Assembly: GCA_964492875.1 (NCBI GenBank)
Contig: CAZBLD010000002.1
Span: forward strand, 5,579-69,578
From: an uncultured Planctomycetaceae bacterium
GTDB taxonomy: Bacteria > Planctomycetota > Phycisphaerae > Sedimentisphaerales > UBA12454
Direction of reading: 5' to 3'
Length of the DNA: 64,000 nucleotides
Of the stretch, positions 5,180-21,643 are shown piece after piece (position 1 is the first letter of the stretch; each line of letters begins with the position of its first letter). The notes under the pieces were generated by a model. That model did not search any database. It saw only the letters and a list, made by a program, of their open reading frames with translations, and was not told where the DNA came from. Made by a program: the position numbers and the translations under genes.

Positions 5180-7494
<2,315 letters not shown>

Positions 7495-14052: not shown

Positions 14053-15255
14053 TTAAAGTCTGACAATTTCTGTCGGCCCTGTAAGTTTGTACTTGACGCC
14101 TCGCCAGTTTATCGTCCTGCCGAACGATGAAGAAATAATGCAGATAAACAAAATCAGCGACCATAACGGAGTGGCGACAATATCAGCCGTCGCCGCTATT
14201 TTCATTTTTGCAGCTTCCGCCGCCAGAAGTCTGAAAATCATTTTCTGCCTCAAAATAGCCCGTGTTATTTGTCCTGCAAGAAAAACAATCGCCGCCGTCA
14301 GAAAGACCTGTCGATATTCTGAACCGGTAAGGTATGAAAAAATTGCCAGTCCCGTAAAACCCCAAAGCCCCAGGACTGAAAACACGCTGCTTACAAGACC
14401 GAACCACCATGTTCCCGGCACAGTTATCCTTGTAATAACAAACTGCCTTCTTACAAACTCAAAAAGACTGCGCCAATTGGTCTGTTCAAAAGAAGCGACA
14501 AGACATCCGGGCACAAAGATGACTTTAAGTTTCGCCTTTTTGACTTCCCTCGTCAGCGTCAAATCATCGCTGACCGCATTTTGCCAGACTTTATCAATTC
14601 CAAGCCTTCGGAAGACATCGACGCGCACCGCCATTGAGCCGCCCCAGGCGCAATTGAATATTGTCGGACCGAGCAATTGAGCAACCTTGGCATTCATCGC
14701 GGACAGCGCCAGCGTTGCGAAATTATTTTCCAGCGGCACATACCAGCGATAGCCGCTCGCCACGCCGTGTTTGGCCTTTCGCAGTGGATAAACAAGAAAG
14801 CTTAGCCAGTCTTTGCGGACGCAGGCATCAGAATCAGCAAATGCAAAAACCTCAACATCTTTTTCAGCGTCTCTGCACGCATAAAGCAGATTATGCAGCT
14901 TCTGGCTGCCTTCTGTCGCTATTCCGGCAACAAGAACTCTTGTCTTAAAAGCCTTTGAGTGGTCTTGGAACCGCTCTTTAAGACCCAGCAGTTGGTTATA
15001 AGCCGCATCTTCGCAGCTTTCGACTACGAATATCAGCTCGAAATTGTCATAATCAAGCCGGTAAAATGAACCGATATTCTCATCAAAAGCCGTGTCGATT
15101 CCCTTGCACGGCACAATCAATGCAACTCTGGGACGGTAAGAAGTATACTTTCTGGCAACCTTTTTCAGAACATATCTGTAGTGTTGAAAAATCTGATAAA
15201 CGAACAGAACCTGTATCAGAATGCAGGCTATCGCTATTATATACAAAACCGTCAT
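14053..15255 (-). CDS. Membrane glycosyltransferase, GT2/GT21 (ceramide glucosyltransferase/HpnI-like)
   Basis: N-terminal TM, LIVPCKG, DSD, SDDL, RRQ...R, C-terminal TMs; start set at ATG 15255 to avoid overlap with the upstream gene. Confidence 0.85.
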   Translation of the reverse strand: MTVLYIIAIACILIQVLFVYQIFQHYRYVLKKVARKYTSYRPRVALIVPCKGIDTAFDENIGSFYRLDYDNFELIFVVESCEDAAYNQLLGLKERFQDHSKAFKTRVLVAGIATEGSQKLHNLLYACRDAEKDVEVFAFADSDACVRKDWLSFLVYPLRKAKHGVASGYRWYVPLENNFATLALSAMNAKVAQLLGPTIFNCAWGGSMAVRVDVFRRLGIDKVWQNAVSDDLTLTREVKKAKLKVIFVPGCLVASFEQTNWRSLFEFVRRQFVITRITVPGTWWFGLVSSVFSVLGLWGFTGLAIFSYLTGSEYRQVFLTAAIVFLAGQITRAILRQKMIFRLLAAEAAKMKIAATADIVATPLWSLILFICIISSSFGRTINWRGVKYKLTGPTEIVRL

Positions 15256-15268
15256 ATCTGCCGAGCCT

Positions 15269-16117
15269 TTAGCCAATACTTGCAAGCGGCACAAGAGAGC
15301 CCGTTAATTTTTCTATCGTGTATTGAGAACTCAGGTCAATATGCAGCAGGTGGCCGTGATTGTGCTGTGAGTCTATTATAATCAGATTTTCATTATTACT
15401 CATCCATCCTGTTTCCTGAATCTGATGGCCAAGCACAAATAAATCGACGTCGAGTTGTTGCGCAAGAAACGCAAGGCTTTTGTTGCTTTGTCCTCTGCCC
15501 CAGGTAAGCAGATACGCCGAATTGGGTTTCACTATATCGCTGATTTTTAATTTCCTGTGAAAAATTGAAAAATCAAACTTATTAATCATCCTGTCGGAAG
15601 GCAGCGAATGTGAAATCCATATCCGGTTGGGACATCTGACTGCCAGAGGCTGCGAAAAAAGAAATCTTTCTATCGCACTTTCCACCTCCTTTGTCCGGCT
15701 GCCGAAACGTCTCTGCATCGCTGCACGCATCGCAGCATTCATCTCTTTCCCGCCCTTCATAACATCGCTGTTGTTTATAAAAGCGGTATCATGATTTGCG
15801 AGGATGAAATGTATCCTGCCGGGGTAATCTATCTTGAGCTTTGCGGCATCGGCCAATAGTTCAAATGATAAACACCCCCCTTTCTCATCTTCCGGTCCGC
15901 CGTGAATTAACTCCTGCAAAATAAGATGTCTGTCTGGATTTTTATCCAGTGCGGCATAAGTTATTATTCGTTCGAAATTGCGCCGATGGCCGTGGATATC
16001 GCCGGCAATAACCGTATCGCCCTTGTCCGGCATAACTATCAGATTATGCTGTCTGAAACAGTCGCTTTCATTGGCTTTGATGCCGGCCTGCAGCAGTTCT
16101 ATAAAGTCCTTTGTCAT
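15269..16117 (-). CDS. Calcineurin-like metallophosphoesterase with atypical motifs
   Basis: GDIHG, QELIHGG (in place of GDxxDRG), ANHD, SHS, GHQ. Confidence 0.8.
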   Translation of the reverse strand: MTKDFIELLQAGIKANESDCFRQHNLIVMPDKGDTVIAGDIHGHRRNFERIITYAALDKNPDRHLILQELIHGGPEDEKGGCLSFELLADAAKLKIDYPGRIHFILANHDTAFINNSDVMKGGKEMNAAMRAAMQRRFGSRTKEVESAIERFLFSQPLAVRCPNRIWISHSLPSDRMINKFDFSIFHRKLKISDIVKPNSAYLLTWGRGQSNKSLAFLAQQLDVDLFVLGHQIQETGWMSNNENLIIIDSQHNHGHLLHIDLSSQYTIEKLTGSLVPLASIG

Positions 16118-16959
16118 TACTGACTTCTTAGTTTTTTGGCGAAAATACTATGAATCAGAAGGTCAAGTCTTGAAATCACCTCGGCCATTGAATCAGGACG
16201 ATTTTCAGGCTCCTGGTTCACACAATCCATAACAAGATTTGAAACGCCCATTGGTATCTTGCGGTGGACCTGATGGGGAGCCGCAAACCGGCGCTGACTG
16301 AGCATCGCTGAAATATCATTCGACTGCGGTATCAGTGTCGGAACATTTTTGCCGGTAAGCGCCCAGTACATCGTCGCTCCGAGATTAAAGACATCCGTCC
16401 GCTGGTCGAGATGCCTTCTTTTAACCTGCTCCGGCGCAATGTAATCAGGCGTACCCTGAATCCTCGGCTTTACCGTGCCGATTTTGCAGCCTTGACCAAG
16501 GTCGATTATCCGCAGAGCACCGGATTCGTTTATCAGAATGTTATTCGGCTTGATATCACAATGTATATAACCCTGCTGATGCATCGTATTAAGGCCGTCG
16601 GCAACCATACGAAACACCAGCAGCACATCGCCGAGACTTAGGCTTTTGGACTTTTCAAGGGTCTCACCTTCAAACATCTCCATAGAAAGCAATAACTCCT
16701 TGACCTTGAGCATCTTACGGACTTTAATCAGCTTATTACACCTCCGCAGATACGGGTGCCGGACTATCCTTGAAACTTTGTATTCATTTATTATCTGCTC
16801 GAATATTCGGTGGTCTTCCGACTTTTCATAGATGGAACGTTTAAGAGCGACCGTACTGCCGGTTTCCTCATCGAGCGCAAGGTAAATCACGCTTCGGGCG
16901 CCTGTGCCGAGCTTTTTAATTATTGTAAAACCACTCAATTCGAGCCTGTCAGCCGCCAT
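16117..16959 (-). CDS. Hanks-type Ser/Thr protein kinase, catalytic domain only
   Basis: LGTGARSVIY, VALK, HCDIKPNN, DLG, GTPDYIAPEQ. Confidence 0.95.
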   Translation of the reverse strand: MAADRLELSGFTIIKKLGTGARSVIYLALDEETGSTVALKRSIYEKSEDHRIFEQIINEYKVSRIVRHPYLRRCNKLIKVRKMLKVKELLLSMEMFEGETLEKSKSLSLGDVLLVFRMVADGLNTMHQQGYIHCDIKPNNILINESGALRIIDLGQGCKIGTVKPRIQGTPDYIAPEQVKRRHLDQRTDVFNLGATMYWALTGKNVPTLIPQSNDISAMLSQRRFAAPHQVHRKIPMGVSNLVMDCVNQEPENRPDSMAEVISRLDLLIHSIFAKKLRSQ

Positions 16960-17136: not shown

Positions 17137-17494
17137 TCCCCGATAGCTCAATTGGTAGAGCGAGCGGCTGTAAAATAATGCAGCTCCTGATGGAAACATC
17201 AGGATGAAAAACCGGGTGAATTCAGGGAAGCCTAATTCTGCTGATGCGGAGATGGTAATCCTGAGCCAAGCCTGTTCACACAGGACAAATTAACAAGTGA
17301 GCAGGAAGGTGCAGAGACTACAGGGTGAGGCGGCCTGTGCCAATAAGCTCTGATAAGCGCCCGGCACCTTACACTCGTTTATCCGCCTGTGGCGGACGCA
17401 GGCGAAGGGTATGGTGATGAGATAGTCCGGTCTTCAGGGAAACCTGAAGGAAGCTGTAACCGCTAGGTCGTAGGTTCGAGCCCTACTCGGGGAG
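17137..17494 (+). tRNA. tRNA-Asn(GTT), exons 17137-17171 and 17457-17494, CCA not encoded
   Basis: Joined exons give a 73-nt cloverleaf: TCCCCGA/TCGGGGA acceptor, GCTC/GAGC D stem, AGCGG-CTGTTAA-CCGCT anticodon arm, GTAGG-TTCGAGC-CCTAC T arm, G73. Confidence 0.95.
17172..17456 (+). ncRNA. Group I intron (IC3-like core), 285 nt, no ORF
   Basis: 5' exon ends in U, intron ends in G; P1 GGCUGU/GCAGCU with U-G wobble; P2 and P9 GAAA hairpins; P3 CCGGGUG/CGCCCGG; AATCCTGAGCCAA, GGTGCAGAGACTA and GATAGTCC core motifs. Confidence 0.93.
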
Positions 17495-17794
17495 ATTCGA
17501 GTTCGTCTCTAACCGTTGATATAATTCTGCCAAATATTCTTCACGACTGCAAGAAAAAGGAGCTTTGAATCCAGCTGCCCCGCCCGATTAAAAAGAATTT
17601 AAGAAAAGAGCTACTATAAAGGCAGCTTTTTTTTTGCTAAAAACTCCCCAGTCCACACACTCAACGCATATGCGTTAATTAGGTATTGGCCGGGTAATTT
17701 CCAGAATACTCAAAAAAACCGGCAGAAAAGCTTGTCAATGTCGACAATAACCATATAATTTAATCAGCTTTTAAGATTAAAAAAGGAGTTTATA

Positions 17795-20062
17795 ATGAAA
17801 GCAAAAATTAGTCTTATTACCTTTCTTATCGTTTCAGCAAGTCTATCTCTCATAGTATCAGCTGCCTTGGCAGAAGGTATTTTCAGCGACTGGGCTTATG
17901 CAACCAACGACGGAAATGTGCCTGTGATTCTACATGTAAAAACCGGTGAAAACAAATATACAGAAATACAGCTTGAGCCTGGCAAGGGCATAGTCTTGCC
18001 GGCCGGCTCACAGGAGGTTACTGCATTTCCACTCAAGGGTCGGTTAGCAGAAGGAGAACAAATGAGTGTGAAAACAAACCTTTTCTCAGAGACCTTCAAT
18101 CGCCTACCGCATACTATAACTGAGCCAGGCAAAAGCATTAAGTTTCCCCGGCCTTCGATAGCAGTAACACCTGAGATACGCAAGGGTATGAAAGATGATG
18201 TGGTCTTTGCACCGGGAGCACTAGCGCCGGTAGAAGAAGTACGAGAAGAGACAAAAGAAGAGATAAAAGAAGAGGCAAAAAAAGAAGCTCCGATTGACGA
18301 CAAGGAATTTCTGCATGAACAAAACAAAATGTATATGGAAAAGAAACAACGGCTGGAAGAGATAGACCCCGACAGCGCCGAAGCCGGAGTAATCAGTGGG
18401 GCATTGAAAATCTGGGAAAAAGATATCGATAGAATGACAAAAGAGGCGGAAGATAAATATGGACCAGACTGGAGAGAGCAATACCGTGACTCAAACGGGA
18501 AATTACCAGGCGGCTTTATAGAAGATGATAAATCAAAACTTATTAAGCTAAAAGAAAGGCGCAAGGAGCAGCAAGGCAAAGTCGACGGGTTAAAATCAGA
18601 GTTCGAAGAGCTTAAGAAACGGTTGCAACCCGTTGAGCCCAGATGGGAAGACCGTTTAACGAAAGACCAAAAGAAATTTAGAGAGAAATTTATTGAAGAA
18701 CACGGCCCGTCCGATACATGGGACGAAGAGACGAGGAAGAAATACTCGGAAGGTTTTAATGGACTGACGAAGGAATCGAGAAAACAATGGGAGAAGGACA
18801 AAGCCGAGCAGGCTGAGGTCAACAGAGCTATTGGAAGAAAGATAAAAGAAATTGCTCAGGAACAGGCAGAACTGAATCTGATGGATGAAGCTATTGAACT
18901 ACAGGATAAGAAAGTCGCCGAGAAGCCCTATCTGACAGGAGCGCGGCAGGAGTCCCCGCAAGGGACAGAACCGCTGCTTCAAGCTATTGATGAGATAGAA
19001 CAGATGATAAGGTTCGTTGAGGCTGAGGAGAAGAAGCACAATGAGACGATAAAAAAAGGCCGCTTCATGAAGGGGTACTATACCGAGCTCGCTGGCATTC
19101 CTGAGTCGGAACTGGGAAGGTCAGTGTATATACTTACCGGCGAAGATGCTTGGCCTTCGGATTACCCGGAATGGTTGGCTCAAACAATACCGGGCGATAC
19201 CATCAGTGGGGAGATTTCTCCATATTGGCATATCGTTCCAAAGCTTAAGGCCTCGGTTGGCCATATTCAGGGTAATTCAGAATATTATAGAAAAAATCCG
19301 CCTGCACAGGAAATGAACTATCTACGAAAAGGTCTGTACGAGTGGCAAAAGGCCCTCGCAGAGTATCACAACGCGCTGGACAACTATTATGAAGTACTGG
19401 CCAATTTTGTAAAATATACCCGCTACTACGACAGAGTAAGACGTGATAAATTAGAGGAGATTGACAGGAAATACGCCGGAAGAGACAACGATAAATTTCA
19501 AATGGCAAAATATGATGTTGAAGTAAAGGCGGTTGAGGACTGGTGGCAAAAGTTAAAACCAGAGGAAGAACTGTATTATAACAAACTCCACTCAGGCGAA
19601 GAGGCGTATAATCGTGTCGCCAAAGCGGCAGAGGCAAAGATGTTCAATAGCCTGAGGGATGAATTTGAGAATTCCATAAATATTACCCAGAAGAACAAAG
19701 AATATATGGGGTGTGAAGAGAGACTGAATGATAAAAAGTTAGAGAAGAGCAAAAGAAAAAACTTAGAGCAGCAAAGGGACAGCCTGAAAAAACAGATTGG
19801 CGATATGATAAAGAACGAACAGAAGGCCCGCGGCGAAAACTGGAGGGATAGACTGCGAGATCCGGTTACCGGCGAGCTTCCCGGCGGCCTGATTACAGAT
19901 AAGGGACTCGATAAACTTAAAACGATGTATAATAAGCGAAAAGGTCGGATGGCTTATCAGGTCGGAGCACTTGGAATAGAAGAGGATTGGGCGAATAAGC
20001 CGCTGCCAGAGGACAAACTATATAATTTTTTAGGAGTTCCTGTAGGTAAGCTTCGGACGTGA
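17795..20062 (+). CDS. Large secreted, highly charged coiled-coil protein, function unknown
   Basis: AAGGAG RBS, signal peptide, E/K-rich, twice-repeated G-x-[DN]WR...RD...G-x-LPGG motif. Confidence 0.8.
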   Translation: MKAKISLITFLIVSASLSLIVSAALAEGIFSDWAYATNDGNVPVILHVKTGENKYTEIQLEPGKGIVLPAGSQEVTAFPLKGRLAEGEQMSVKTNLFSETFNRLPHTITEPGKSIKFPRPSIAVTPEIRKGMKDDVVFAPGALAPVEEVREETKEEIKEEAKKEAPIDDKEFLHEQNKMYMEKKQRLEEIDPDSAEAGVISGALKIWEKDIDRMTKEAEDKYGPDWREQYRDSNGKLPGGFIEDDKSKLIKLKERRKEQQGKVDGLKSEFEELKKRLQPVEPRWEDRLTKDQKKFREKFIEEHGPSDTWDEETRKKYSEGFNGLTKESRKQWEKDKAEQAEVNRAIGRKIKEIAQEQAELNLMDEAIELQDKKVAEKPYLTGARQESPQGTEPLLQAIDEIEQMIRFVEAEEKKHNETIKKGRFMKGYYTELAGIPESELGRSVYILTGEDAWPSDYPEWLAQTIPGDTISGEISPYWHIVPKLKASVGHIQGNSEYYRKNPPAQEMNYLRKGLYEWQKALAEYHNALDNYYEVLANFVKYTRYYDRVRRDKLEEIDRKYAGRDNDKFQMAKYDVEVKAVEDWWQKLKPEEELYYNKLHSGEEAYNRVAKAAEAKMFNSLRDEFENSINITQKNKEYMGCEERLNDKKLEKSKRKNLEQQRDSLKKQIGDMIKNEQKARGENWRDRLRDPVTGELPGGLITDKGLDKLKTMYNKRKGRMAYQVGALGIEEDWANKPLPEDKLYNFLGVPVGKLRT

Positions 20063-20176: not shown

Positions 20177-20479
20177 TTAATAACCAGAACTTAATCCGCC
20201 TAACTGCTGCTGCAGAGTCTGCAAGGCGGATTTCGTCGCGGTATAGAGCCAGATGCTGACGGCGATAACCGCTACAGATACGATAATCTTCGTTATGAGT
20301 TTATAACGAGGATTAAACCACATAAGAGGCAGAGCAAAAGGCCCGACACACAACAAAGCAATTACAAACCAATAAGTGGAAAAATACCACTTTTTTTTGA
20401 CTCCCGCCTGCACAGCGGTTGTTGAACTCGGCTGGGTTTGCTCATCCATATCTCTGCCGCAATAAGGACACTTTACCAT
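20177..20479 (-). CDS. Zinc-ribbon (CPYC) two-TM membrane protein
   Basis: MVKCPYCGRD start behind an AGGAG RBS; two hydrophobic helices. Confidence 0.7.
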   Translation of the reverse strand: MVKCPYCGRDMDEQTQPSSTTAVQAGVKKKWYFSTYWFVIALLCVGPFALPLMWFNPRYKLITKIIVSVAVIAVSIWLYTATKSALQTLQQQLGGLSSGY

Positions 20480-20605
20480 AAGCCATTCTCCTATCACATA
20501 TATTATATATCGGGAAAAAGAGGTAAAAAGGAAAAGGAAAAAAGACCTCCTGAACAACAAAAATCACTATGGCCTAAAGCAGAAAAGACAGTTATAATTC
20601 CAAAT

Positions 20606-21643
20606 ATGGCTGAAATTAAACAACAACTCATTACTCTGGTATTAGGAAAGGTTACTGGGGAACTTACCGGTGAAGTGTTCAATCCCACAATCATCAAAAG
20701 TTCGCCTGTATATTACAAAACTGCTGTGCCGAGACAGGTTATCGTCGGGCAGGAAAACTTCACAATCGGCGGCCAAAATGTAACATTTCACCTGCGGGGA
20801 TACCAGCCCGATGTGCTTCTTATTCAAACAACAATAGACGTGGAAAACATATTTCATAAGGAGGGCAATTTTTCACTCGAAAAGCAGTCTTATGAGCACT
20901 CATACCGTATTCTCAAAGAATACGGCGGAGATTCGCTGTTCAGCGAAGAGTACTCGGTCTTTGCCGTTGCCAACTATCAGGGAGACCCTGACCAGTTTCT
21001 CAAACATCGGGACGTCATTGTCTCACTTCTGAAATCCGAAATTCTGGACCTTGACCCGCAGGAGGTGCAGTACACTTTAGGCAGCAGGATAAAATACGGC
21101 AATAATGACTTGTCGATAATCGACTGGGACGGCGCATTTCTTTTTGACCCCAACGGCGACATCGCAGAAGACCTCGAGCTGCTGACGCTTGCGAATCTGC
21201 AGCTTCTGCGACACCGCATCCTCGACCATCAGCTCGACAGCAGACTTGCAAGAATGGTCGAACTGGTGCACAACATTCCGGTTGGTACAAGATACCTGCG
21301 GGACAAAGAGCTGGCTCAAAGAATGAAAGAGACTATGGAAATACGAATGGTCTCCATTTCGGAGCTACAGCGGCTGGAACGCGATATAAAACTCATCGGC
21401 GACTGGTACTCAGCAAGATTTTATGAGCTGGCTACGGCAAAATTCAAAATAGACGAATGGAGAAGAACCATCCGCAGCAAGCTCGAATCGCTGGAAGATG
21501 CCTATTCATTAGTCATAGGCAACTTCACGGTCTCTACAAAATACCGCGCAGAGTGGGCGCAAATTATCGCTTTCTTTATTCTACAAATCGGCTGGTTTGT
21601 CCTGCTTGTCATCGAACTTCTGCGCTTTATGAGAAAATCGTGA
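20606..21643 (+). CDS. RMD1/DUF155-like protein
   Basis: IIDWDGAFLFD, LANLQLL, DWYSARFY...W...KL, C-terminal TM; start moved to ATG 20606. Confidence 0.65.
   Translation: MAEIKQQLITLVLGKVTGELTGEVFNPTIIKSSPVYYKTAVPRQVIVGQENFTIGGQNVTFHLRGYQPDVLLIQTTIDVENIFHKEGNFSLEKQSYEHSYRILKEYGGDSLFSEEYSVFAVANYQGDPDQFLKHRDVIVSLLKSEILDLDPQEVQYTLGSRIKYGNNDLSIIDWDGAFLFDPNGDIAEDLELLTLANLQLLRHRILDHQLDSRLARMVELVHNIPVGTRYLRDKELAQRMKETMEIRMVSISELQRLERDIKLIGDWYSARFYELATAKFKIDEWRRTIRSKLESLEDAYSLVIGNFTVSTKYRAEWAQIIAFFILQIGWFVLLVIELLRFMRKS

Follow-up and report, generated by a model that had tools for sequence, protein, structure and literature searches.

A tRNA-Asn(GUU) gene split within its anticodon by an ORF-less, IC3-like group I intron in an uncultured planctomycete

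A 64-kb stretch of DNA from an uncultured Planctomycetaceae bacterium (64,000 nucleotides, hereafter the window) carries a tRNA-Asn(GUU) gene whose anticodon is interrupted between U35 and U36. We consider it very probable that this is a functional gene, split by an ORF-less, IC3-like group I ribozyme and spliced by the group I pathway. The window is bacterial chromosome, containing atpA, lon, rho, trpE and type IV pilus genes at a G+C content of about 45%. The tRNA gene is genuine and probably functional, and its intron is an ordinary member of a catalogued and widespread class.

The 5′ exon (17137–17171, plus strand; TCCCCGATAGCTCAATTGGTAGAGCGAGCGGCTGT) is 35 nt long and ends in GGCUGU. It covers tRNA positions 1–35, that is, the 5′ strand of the acceptor stem, the D arm, the 5′ strand of the anticodon stem, and C32, U33, G34 and U35. 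The 3′ exon (17457–17494, plus strand; TAACCGCTAGGTCGTAGGTTCGAGCCCTACTCGGGGAG) begins with UAACCGC and supplies in its 38 nt positions 36–73: U36, A37 and A38, the 3′ strand of the anticodon stem, the variable loop, the T arm, the 3′ strand of the acceptor stem and G73. CCA is not encoded. In the joined exons ARAGORN recognized a canonical 73-nt tRNA-Asn(gtt), a cloverleaf with the anticodon GUU, the discriminator G73 and a U1–A72 pair (U1, A72 and G73 by direct reading). The tRNA-Asn(GUU) that the initial annotation had assembled from the two exons is thus correct to the base. ARAGORN in intron mode, a check which that annotation had proposed, likewise recovered the split gene with an intron of 285 nt. 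Since the base 3′ of 17171 is A and the base 5′ of 17457 is G, the splice junction cannot be shifted. Moreover, as the D loop contains no additional residues, nucleotide 35 of the gene is also tRNA position 35, which puts the insertion between U35 and U36; the site placed earlier at 35/36 can accordingly be given exact coordinates, 17171/17172 and 17456/17457.

The intron itself (17172–17456, plus strand, 285 nt) begins with AAAATAATGCAGC and finishes with GGAAGCTG. A group I model search, also suggested at the outset, gave a match to Rfam Intron_gpI (RF00028) at 17162–17449 that spans the full model (positions 1–253 of 253) with 93.3 bits against a gathering score of 50 (E = 1.1e-22). It is the sole Rfam match above threshold within the 64-kb window. 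The minimum free energy (MFE) of the intron has a z-score of −5.47 relative to shuffled sequence, and the plain MFE fold alone recovers P2, P3, P5/P5a, P6/P6a, P8 and P9. The longest ORF that overlaps the intron has only 30 aa, and therefore the intron encodes neither a maturase nor a homing endonuclease, the ORF by which a mobile intron would be recognized.

We placed the helices, all on the plus strand, by reading the sequence against the Rfam alignment and a published seed alignment. P1 (17166–17185) consists of exon nucleotides 30–35, GGCUGU (17166–17171), paired with the guide sequence GCAGCU (17180–17185), and direct reading puts the wobble pair of the 5′ splice site at U35·G17180. P2 (17186–17203) is a hairpin of 7 bp closed by a GAAA tetraloop (17193–17196). 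The strands of P3 are CCGGGUG (17212–17218) and CGCCCGG (17358–17364). Pair counts across homologues support P4 (17222–17227 with 17259–17264), and both these counts and the MFE fold support P5 (17230–17232 with 17254–17256), P5a (17236–17241 with 17246–17251), P6 (17265–17267 with 17308–17310) and P6a (17271–17279 with 17297–17305). P7, the guanosine-binding helix, joins G(A)GACUA with its bulged A (17314–17320) to UAGUCC (17423–17428), just before which lies J8/7 (GAUGAGA). Between P7 and the 3′ strand of P3 is an extra hairpin of 32 nt, here called P7.1 (17321–17352), with an outer stem (17321–17326 with 17347–17352) and, by sequence reading, an inner GGC/GCC stem (17332–17334 with 17339–17341); relative to the Rfam consensus, the region amounts to a 35-nt insertion. 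P8 (17365–17416) pairs 17365–17368 with 17413–17416 and 17370–17372 with 17409–17411, again according to both pair counts and MFE fold, and in the MFE fold it encloses a lineage-specific inner hairpin (17382–17387 with 17391–17396). P9 (17431–17450) is a hairpin of 8 bp with a GAAA tetraloop at 17439–17442. The terminal guanosine (omega G, 17456) directly precedes the 3′ splice site. The features that had first pointed to a group I intron, namely a U–G splice site in P1, motifs of P3 and P7 and a terminal G, are all present: GGCUGU pairs with GCAGCU, both strands of P3 and of P7 are located, and the G at the junction is unambiguous. Sequence reading gave no convincing P10 pairing in this intron. 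The alignment shows in several Patescibacteria copies a GUUA immediately before the guide sequence that could pair with UAAC of the exon.

We next turn to homologous introns. The search pattern combined the last bases of the exon with the guide sequence and the core at P3/J3-4 (GCTGT..GCAGC..GGGTGAATTCNRGRRA); it has one match in the window and none in 100 shuffles, and in a collection with one genome per GTDB species it matched at least 119 loci. These were joined at CTGT|...G|T, and ARAGORN was run on the joined sequences. It found a canonical tRNA-Asn(GUU) of 72–78 nt in 105 of the 119 genome loci listed, hence in at least 105 genomes, while most of the remaining 14 are apparently truncated where the stored stretch ends. 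An equivalent of the omega G is therefore present in at least 105 homologous loci, each of which gives a canonical tRNA-Asn when cut there. The introns of the genome loci listed measure 179–334 nt (median 255).

For covariation, the structure of the window's intron was projected onto a MAFFT alignment of 107 homologous introns. Standard pairs occupy 87.9% of the cells, versus 72.5% in column shuffles and 34–43% when the partners are slid by 1–3 columns. The covariation score is 0.367 versus 0.123, and none of 500 shuffles reached it. Some of the invariance is uninformative, as the search pattern itself imposes it on P1, on GGGTGAATTC and on part of the P3/J3-4 core; the U·G of P1 and the four adjoining pairs, found in 107 of 107 homologues, are required by that pattern. 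P7 lies outside the pattern, though, and is still invariant in 106–107 of 107. Among the same 107 introns, cells are paired to 98.9% in P2, with compensatory changes in six of its seven pairs, and to 100% in P3, whose two outer pairs covary (UA/GC/CG and CG/UA/GC). P6a shows compensatory changes in all nine pairs (85.5% of cells paired) and P9 in seven of eight; P8 has changes on both sides in six of seven pairs, three of its outer four covarying and one being invariant. Compensatory changes also occur in P4, P5 and P6. The outer stem of P7.1 reads CAGGGU/GCUCUG in the window, UGGGGU/ACCUCA in a related intron of a MAG labelled Pirellulales (L131) and UGGGGU/ACCCCA in one of a Sedimentisphaerales MAG (L212), which again is compensatory. 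Every helix of the conserved core (the P3–P7 pseudoknot, the P4–P6 domain, P8 and J8/7) can be placed. Selection for the group I fold acts on this family, and no element of the fold is broken in the window's copy.

On this observed anatomy, family membership, conservation and exact junction, catalysis would, we infer, take the following course. After transcription the intron would fold into P1–P9 and the extra hairpin between P7 and the 3′ strand of P3. G30–U35 would pair with GCAGCU to form P1, placing U35 in the U·G wobble, and exogenous guanosine bound in P7 would attack the bond after U35. The terminal G (17456) would then take the place of the guanosine at the P7 site, and the released 3′-OH of U35 would attack the bond after G17456, joining U35 to U36 in a 73-nt tRNA body to which CCA would be added after splicing. 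These steps are established group I intron chemistry. Judging from the sequence, P1 takes up G30 and G31 of the anticodon stem, and so P1 and the full anticodon stem would be mutually exclusive in the precursor.

How does this intron relate to known ones? In K. P. Williams's 2020 catalogue of tRNA group I introns (bioRxiv 10.1101/2020.01.27.920355), the class Asn.4Ug is already present: the seed alignment there includes Pam37.Asn.4Ug as well as Asp.4Ug, Tyr.4Ug and Lys.4Ug. The four classical classes are Leu.3Ug, Arg.5Ug, fMet.2Ug and Ile2.5Ug. Pam37.Asn.4Ug interrupts the same tRNA-Asn(GUU) after the fourth nucleotide of the anticodon loop (CUGU/UAA), with U at −1 and a terminal G. It shares with the window's intron the core strings GGGUGAAUUC, GCAGAGACUA, AGCGCCC and AUGAGAUAGUCC and the hairpin after P7, and the two are 74% identical over 236 aligned nt. 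They differ in the P1 loop, which has 8 nt in the window versus about 42 nt in Pam37, and in P8, which in the window is longer and has an inner hairpin. Given the same host tRNA, the same site, this level of identity and the shared hairpin, we assign the window's intron to Asn.4Ug. The sibling classes Dba165.Lys.2Ug (71% identical to the window's intron), Mba55.Phe.2Ug and Mga42.Leu.1Ug have the same core and a hairpin of the P7.1 type, but they reside in other tRNAs or at other loop positions. Elsewhere, the 2008 tRNADB-CE paper mentions tRNA introns only in tRNA-Leu of Burkholderia, and that on tRNAscan-SE 2.0 only those of fMet and Ile2. A targeted literature search on tRNA-Asn group I introns, Planctomycetes and Patescibacteria/Candidate Phyla Radiation returned only mitochondrial or irrelevant papers.

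The classical IC3 introns are those of Azoarcus tRNA-Ile(CAU), Agrobacterium tRNA-Arg(CCU), cyanobacterial and plastid tRNA-Leu(UAA) and tRNA-fMet. Like the window's intron, they are small and ORF-less, sit in the anticodon loop, splice after a U and carry GAAA on P2 and P9; their P4–P6 and J6/7–P7 sequences (..CCNGAGCCAAGC.., GAAGGUGYAGAGACUA), compared in the seeds from Azoarcus, Synechococcus and others, closely resemble its own, and the Azoarcus seed is 65% identical to it. In contrast, they interrupt other tRNAs at 34/35 or 36/37 rather than 35/36, their seeds are without the hairpin of about 32 nt between P7 and the 3′ strand of P3, and their J8/7 reads AAGGNAUAGUCC, whereas that of the window reads AUGAGAUAGUCC. 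Thus, P4–P6, J6/7–P7, size and location all agree with IC3, but P7 is not directly followed by the 3′ strand of P3. Because of the 35 nt inserted there, we call the intron IC3-like and not strictly IC3.

These comparisons bear on whether the RNA would suffice for splicing. Any protein help in vivo is, like catalysis, a step beyond what is observed, and it is rather unlikely that this true group I intron would be inefficient alone and depend in vivo on a host protein cofactor or chaperone. Many group I introns do need proteins in vivo, and this one has peripheral additions in its hairpin after P7 and its enlarged P8. On the other hand, the related small IC3 tRNA introns of Azoarcus and Anabaena self-splice efficiently, and there is no maturase ORF in the intron. 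Furthermore, GAAA loops of the GNRA type cap both P2 and P9, and UAUGG opposite CCUUAC in P8 resembles, in sequence, the 11-nt tetraloop receptor. The combination presumably recalls the tetraloop–receptor scaffold of the Azoarcus intron, and it would suggest a tertiary scaffold made of RNA only.

We then looked for uninterrupted counterparts of the gene. A search of metagenomes with the predicted spliced junction (GGTAGAGCGAGCGGCTGTTAACCGCTAGGT) found at least 120 contigs, and about 20 of the junction contigs listed are syntenic with the window (for example L303, L278, L279 and L305). They encode orthologues of three consecutive window genes: a Ser/Thr kinase (16117–16959) that is divergent from tRNA-Asn, a 282-aa protein of unknown function (15269–16117) and a family-2 glycosyltransferase (14053–15294). 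Proteins of the syntenic contigs are 58–86% identical to those of the window, and in most of these contigs, as in the window, tRNA-Asn lies divergently, 220–520 nt from the kinase start. The closest among the contigs listed is L303 (Ga0315543_1003861), with identities of 85% for the kinase, 86% for the 282-aa protein and 85% for the glycosyltransferase. Its tRNA-Asn is uninterrupted and agrees with the predicted spliced product at all 73 positions (73/73); aligned with the window, it shows one clean gap of 285 nt. Being uninterrupted, syntenic and identical throughout, the L303 locus represents the empty site. Short of RNA data, this pair is the best sign available here that the junction is right and that the exons make a working tRNA. 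The intact tRNA-Asn genes in L246, L255 and L332 are also 73/73 identical to the predicted product.

The same data speak to the idea that the split gene might be redundant or disabled, with an intact tRNA-Asn elsewhere doing all Asn decoding and the intron decaying as a passenger. Our view is limited to 64 kb of the genome, and metagenomes abound in intact tRNA-Asn genes that share its anticodon arm, both of which would leave room for it. We nevertheless regard this as improbable. The catalytic elements are all intact and match a family under structural selection, the exons agree at 73 of 73 positions with the intact, presumably functional gene that a relative has at the corresponding syntenic position, and relatives keep tRNA-Asn at the same divergent position by the kinase. 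A second intact tRNA-Asn was seen in none of the 119 loci listed, a weak test given stored stretches of at most 8 kb.

The surroundings of the gene showed a few further features. Directly downstream of the tRNA is a 755-aa ORF (17795–20062, plus strand). The N-terminus of its product resembles a signal peptide, the long middle part is rich in K and E, and Pfam gave no match. Its coding strand has a strong purine excess, with an AT skew of 0.33 and a GC skew of 0.20 at 18–20 kb. It is missing in L303, where the tRNA adjoins an orthologue of 20438–21643, and a partial homologue in L332 is 77% identical to it. This neighbour of the tRNA is a variable gene. A search for contigs encoding the 755-aa protein gave no match and so provided no further contig across the intron. 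A scan for promoters and terminators around the tRNA yielded nothing convincing. A short stem followed by nine T at 17609–17640, about 115 nt 3′ of the tRNA, is a weak terminator candidate on the plus strand; the scan scored the stem on the minus strand.

Could the intron be an artefact of assembly or binning, in which a tRNA was joined to foreign sequence? Two Logan contigs (L001 and L002, from runs ERR4334734 and ERR4334736) are 100% and 99.9% identical to the window over 6.1 and 4.7 kb, and both break at 17160, inside exon 1 and short of the intron. The shared end suggests that the assembly graph branches at this gene because of strain variation or a repeat. The syntenic L131, too, has a scaffold gap of 100 N and a duplicated exon 1 at tRNA-Asn. 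Against such an origin, the order and register of the two exons around the intron are correct, more than 100 independent assemblies, long-read chromosomes included, have a gene of the same architecture, and the introns of the window, L131 and L212 belong to one distinct subtype. An artefact is thus hardly credible, and we treat the intron as a true part of the gene. As for L131 itself, an odd tRNA-Asn-like fragment and a duplication lie near the real gene (6988–7060 and 7130–7290). The fragment is degenerate, lies upstream of that gene at a distance of about 300 nt and consists of exon positions 1–28, unrelated sequence and then TTAACCG. A copy of exon 1 with the first 20 intron bases flanks the gap, and this duplication looks like an assembly problem.

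The class occurs with the same site under the labels of about 20 phylum-level groups (at least 105 GTDB species genomes), these being submitters' labels on MAGs, some of them doubtful. Among the labels listed are Patescibacteria, Nitrospirota, Acidobacteriota/Aminicenantes, Binatia, 'delta proteobacteria', Bacteroidota/Ignavibacteriota, Omnitrophota, Elusimicrobiota, WOR-3/Stahlbacteria, Actinomycetota and Firmicutes-type bacteria. One MAG labelled Klebsiella pneumoniae (L158, CAMBFS010000088.1) also carries a split tRNA-Asn; since its intron groups with environmental lineages, L158 is probably a mis-binned contig or a mislabelled MAG. Five Planctomycetota MAGs appear among the matches listed, assigned to Pirellulales (L131), Gemmatales (L149), Planctomycetia (L176 and L203) and Sedimentisphaerales (L212). 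The initial annotation had implied that the arrangement is rare or new, leaving its novelty to stand or fall with prior description of the site in the phylum. With the site catalogued in 2020 and the class present both widely and in Planctomycetota, the implication falls. What the present analysis adds is the clean pair of filled and empty sites and a putative Planctomycetota-specific subtype; it opens no new question.

That subtype is made up of the introns of the window, L131 and L212. The window's intron is 84% identical to that of L212, which also has identical exons, and 80% to that of L131; the three are 80–84% identical among themselves and at most 71% identical to all others listed. 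The labels of L131 and L212 would place the window in Planctomycetota, and the subtype would be specific to this phylum. The introns of L149, L176 and L203 belong to other subtypes, and the introns closest to them come from genomes with the labels Krumholzibacteriia, Nitrospiria or Omnitrophota. L131 is the only one of the listed intron-bearing genome loci that is syntenic with the window (kinase 64% identical). In a rough neighbour-joining tree built from the kinase and the 282-aa protein, the window is sister to the intron-less L303 and L131 to the intron-less L252. As both intron carriers have intron-less sisters, the intron is patchy within the lineage. Each of the two scans selected for one state, and for this reason no frequencies can be read from them. 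The history of the intron is equally compatible with one old acquisition followed by repeated precise loss and with repeated transfer.

Viral sequences are relevant here. Two of the IMG/VR contigs carry a tRNA-Asn(GUU) split at 35/36 by an intron of the same family, L077 (IMGVR_UViG_3300033153_009805, around 5500–5790 on the minus strand) with an intron of 218 nt and L021 (IMGVR_UViG_3300032782_000001, around 1920–2260) with one of 227 nt. The gene in L077, which differs in its D arm, lies within an array of 15 other tRNA genes, and such phage tRNA arrays could serve as a vehicle that spreads the intron. More than 120 IMG/VR contigs (loci L003–L122) have the core pattern GGGTGAATTC..AGAGACTA..AGCGCCC. 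These viral-contig introns share the core and the extra hairpin with the window's intron, but they lie mostly outside tRNAs that ARAGORN recognizes: only 6 of the 121 viral matches listed are in such a tRNA and 115 are not. Outside tRNAs, phage sequences thus commonly contain the subtype with the hairpin after P7. Patchiness among close syntenic relatives, differing subtypes within one phylum and two viral carriers lead us to put forward, tentatively, a possibility that we hold to be well short of probable: the ORF-less intron may be horizontally mobile between distant bacteria, possibly via phage tRNA arrays, and may enter the tRNA-Asn anticodon by reverse splicing guided by GCAGC or by homing with an endonuclease supplied in trans. 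The same observations fit old vertical inheritance with repeated precise loss equally well.

Genes of this kind are easily overlooked. Run with default settings, ARAGORN found no tRNA anywhere in the 64-kb window and none in six related loci, as the initial annotation had anticipated for standard tRNA finders, and the Rfam tRNA model stayed below threshold at the split tRNA-Asn in the window. ARAGORN in intron mode labelled about 25 of the split tRNA-Asn genome loci (within L124–L242) as Thr, Asp, His or Tyr because it set the intron boundary a few bases off; on re-joining at CTGT|...G|T, these isotypes were rejected and nearly all of the loci proved to be tRNA-Asn. An isotype assigned to an intron-split bacterial tRNA should be verified by applying the rule that U stands at −1 and G at omega. 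As default ARAGORN and the Rfam tRNA model both miss the gene, genomes of this lineage will seem to be without tRNA-Asn. Such an apparent absence can depress completeness estimates or prompt false ideas about decoding, and the chief practical value of the split tRNA-Asn lies in annotation.
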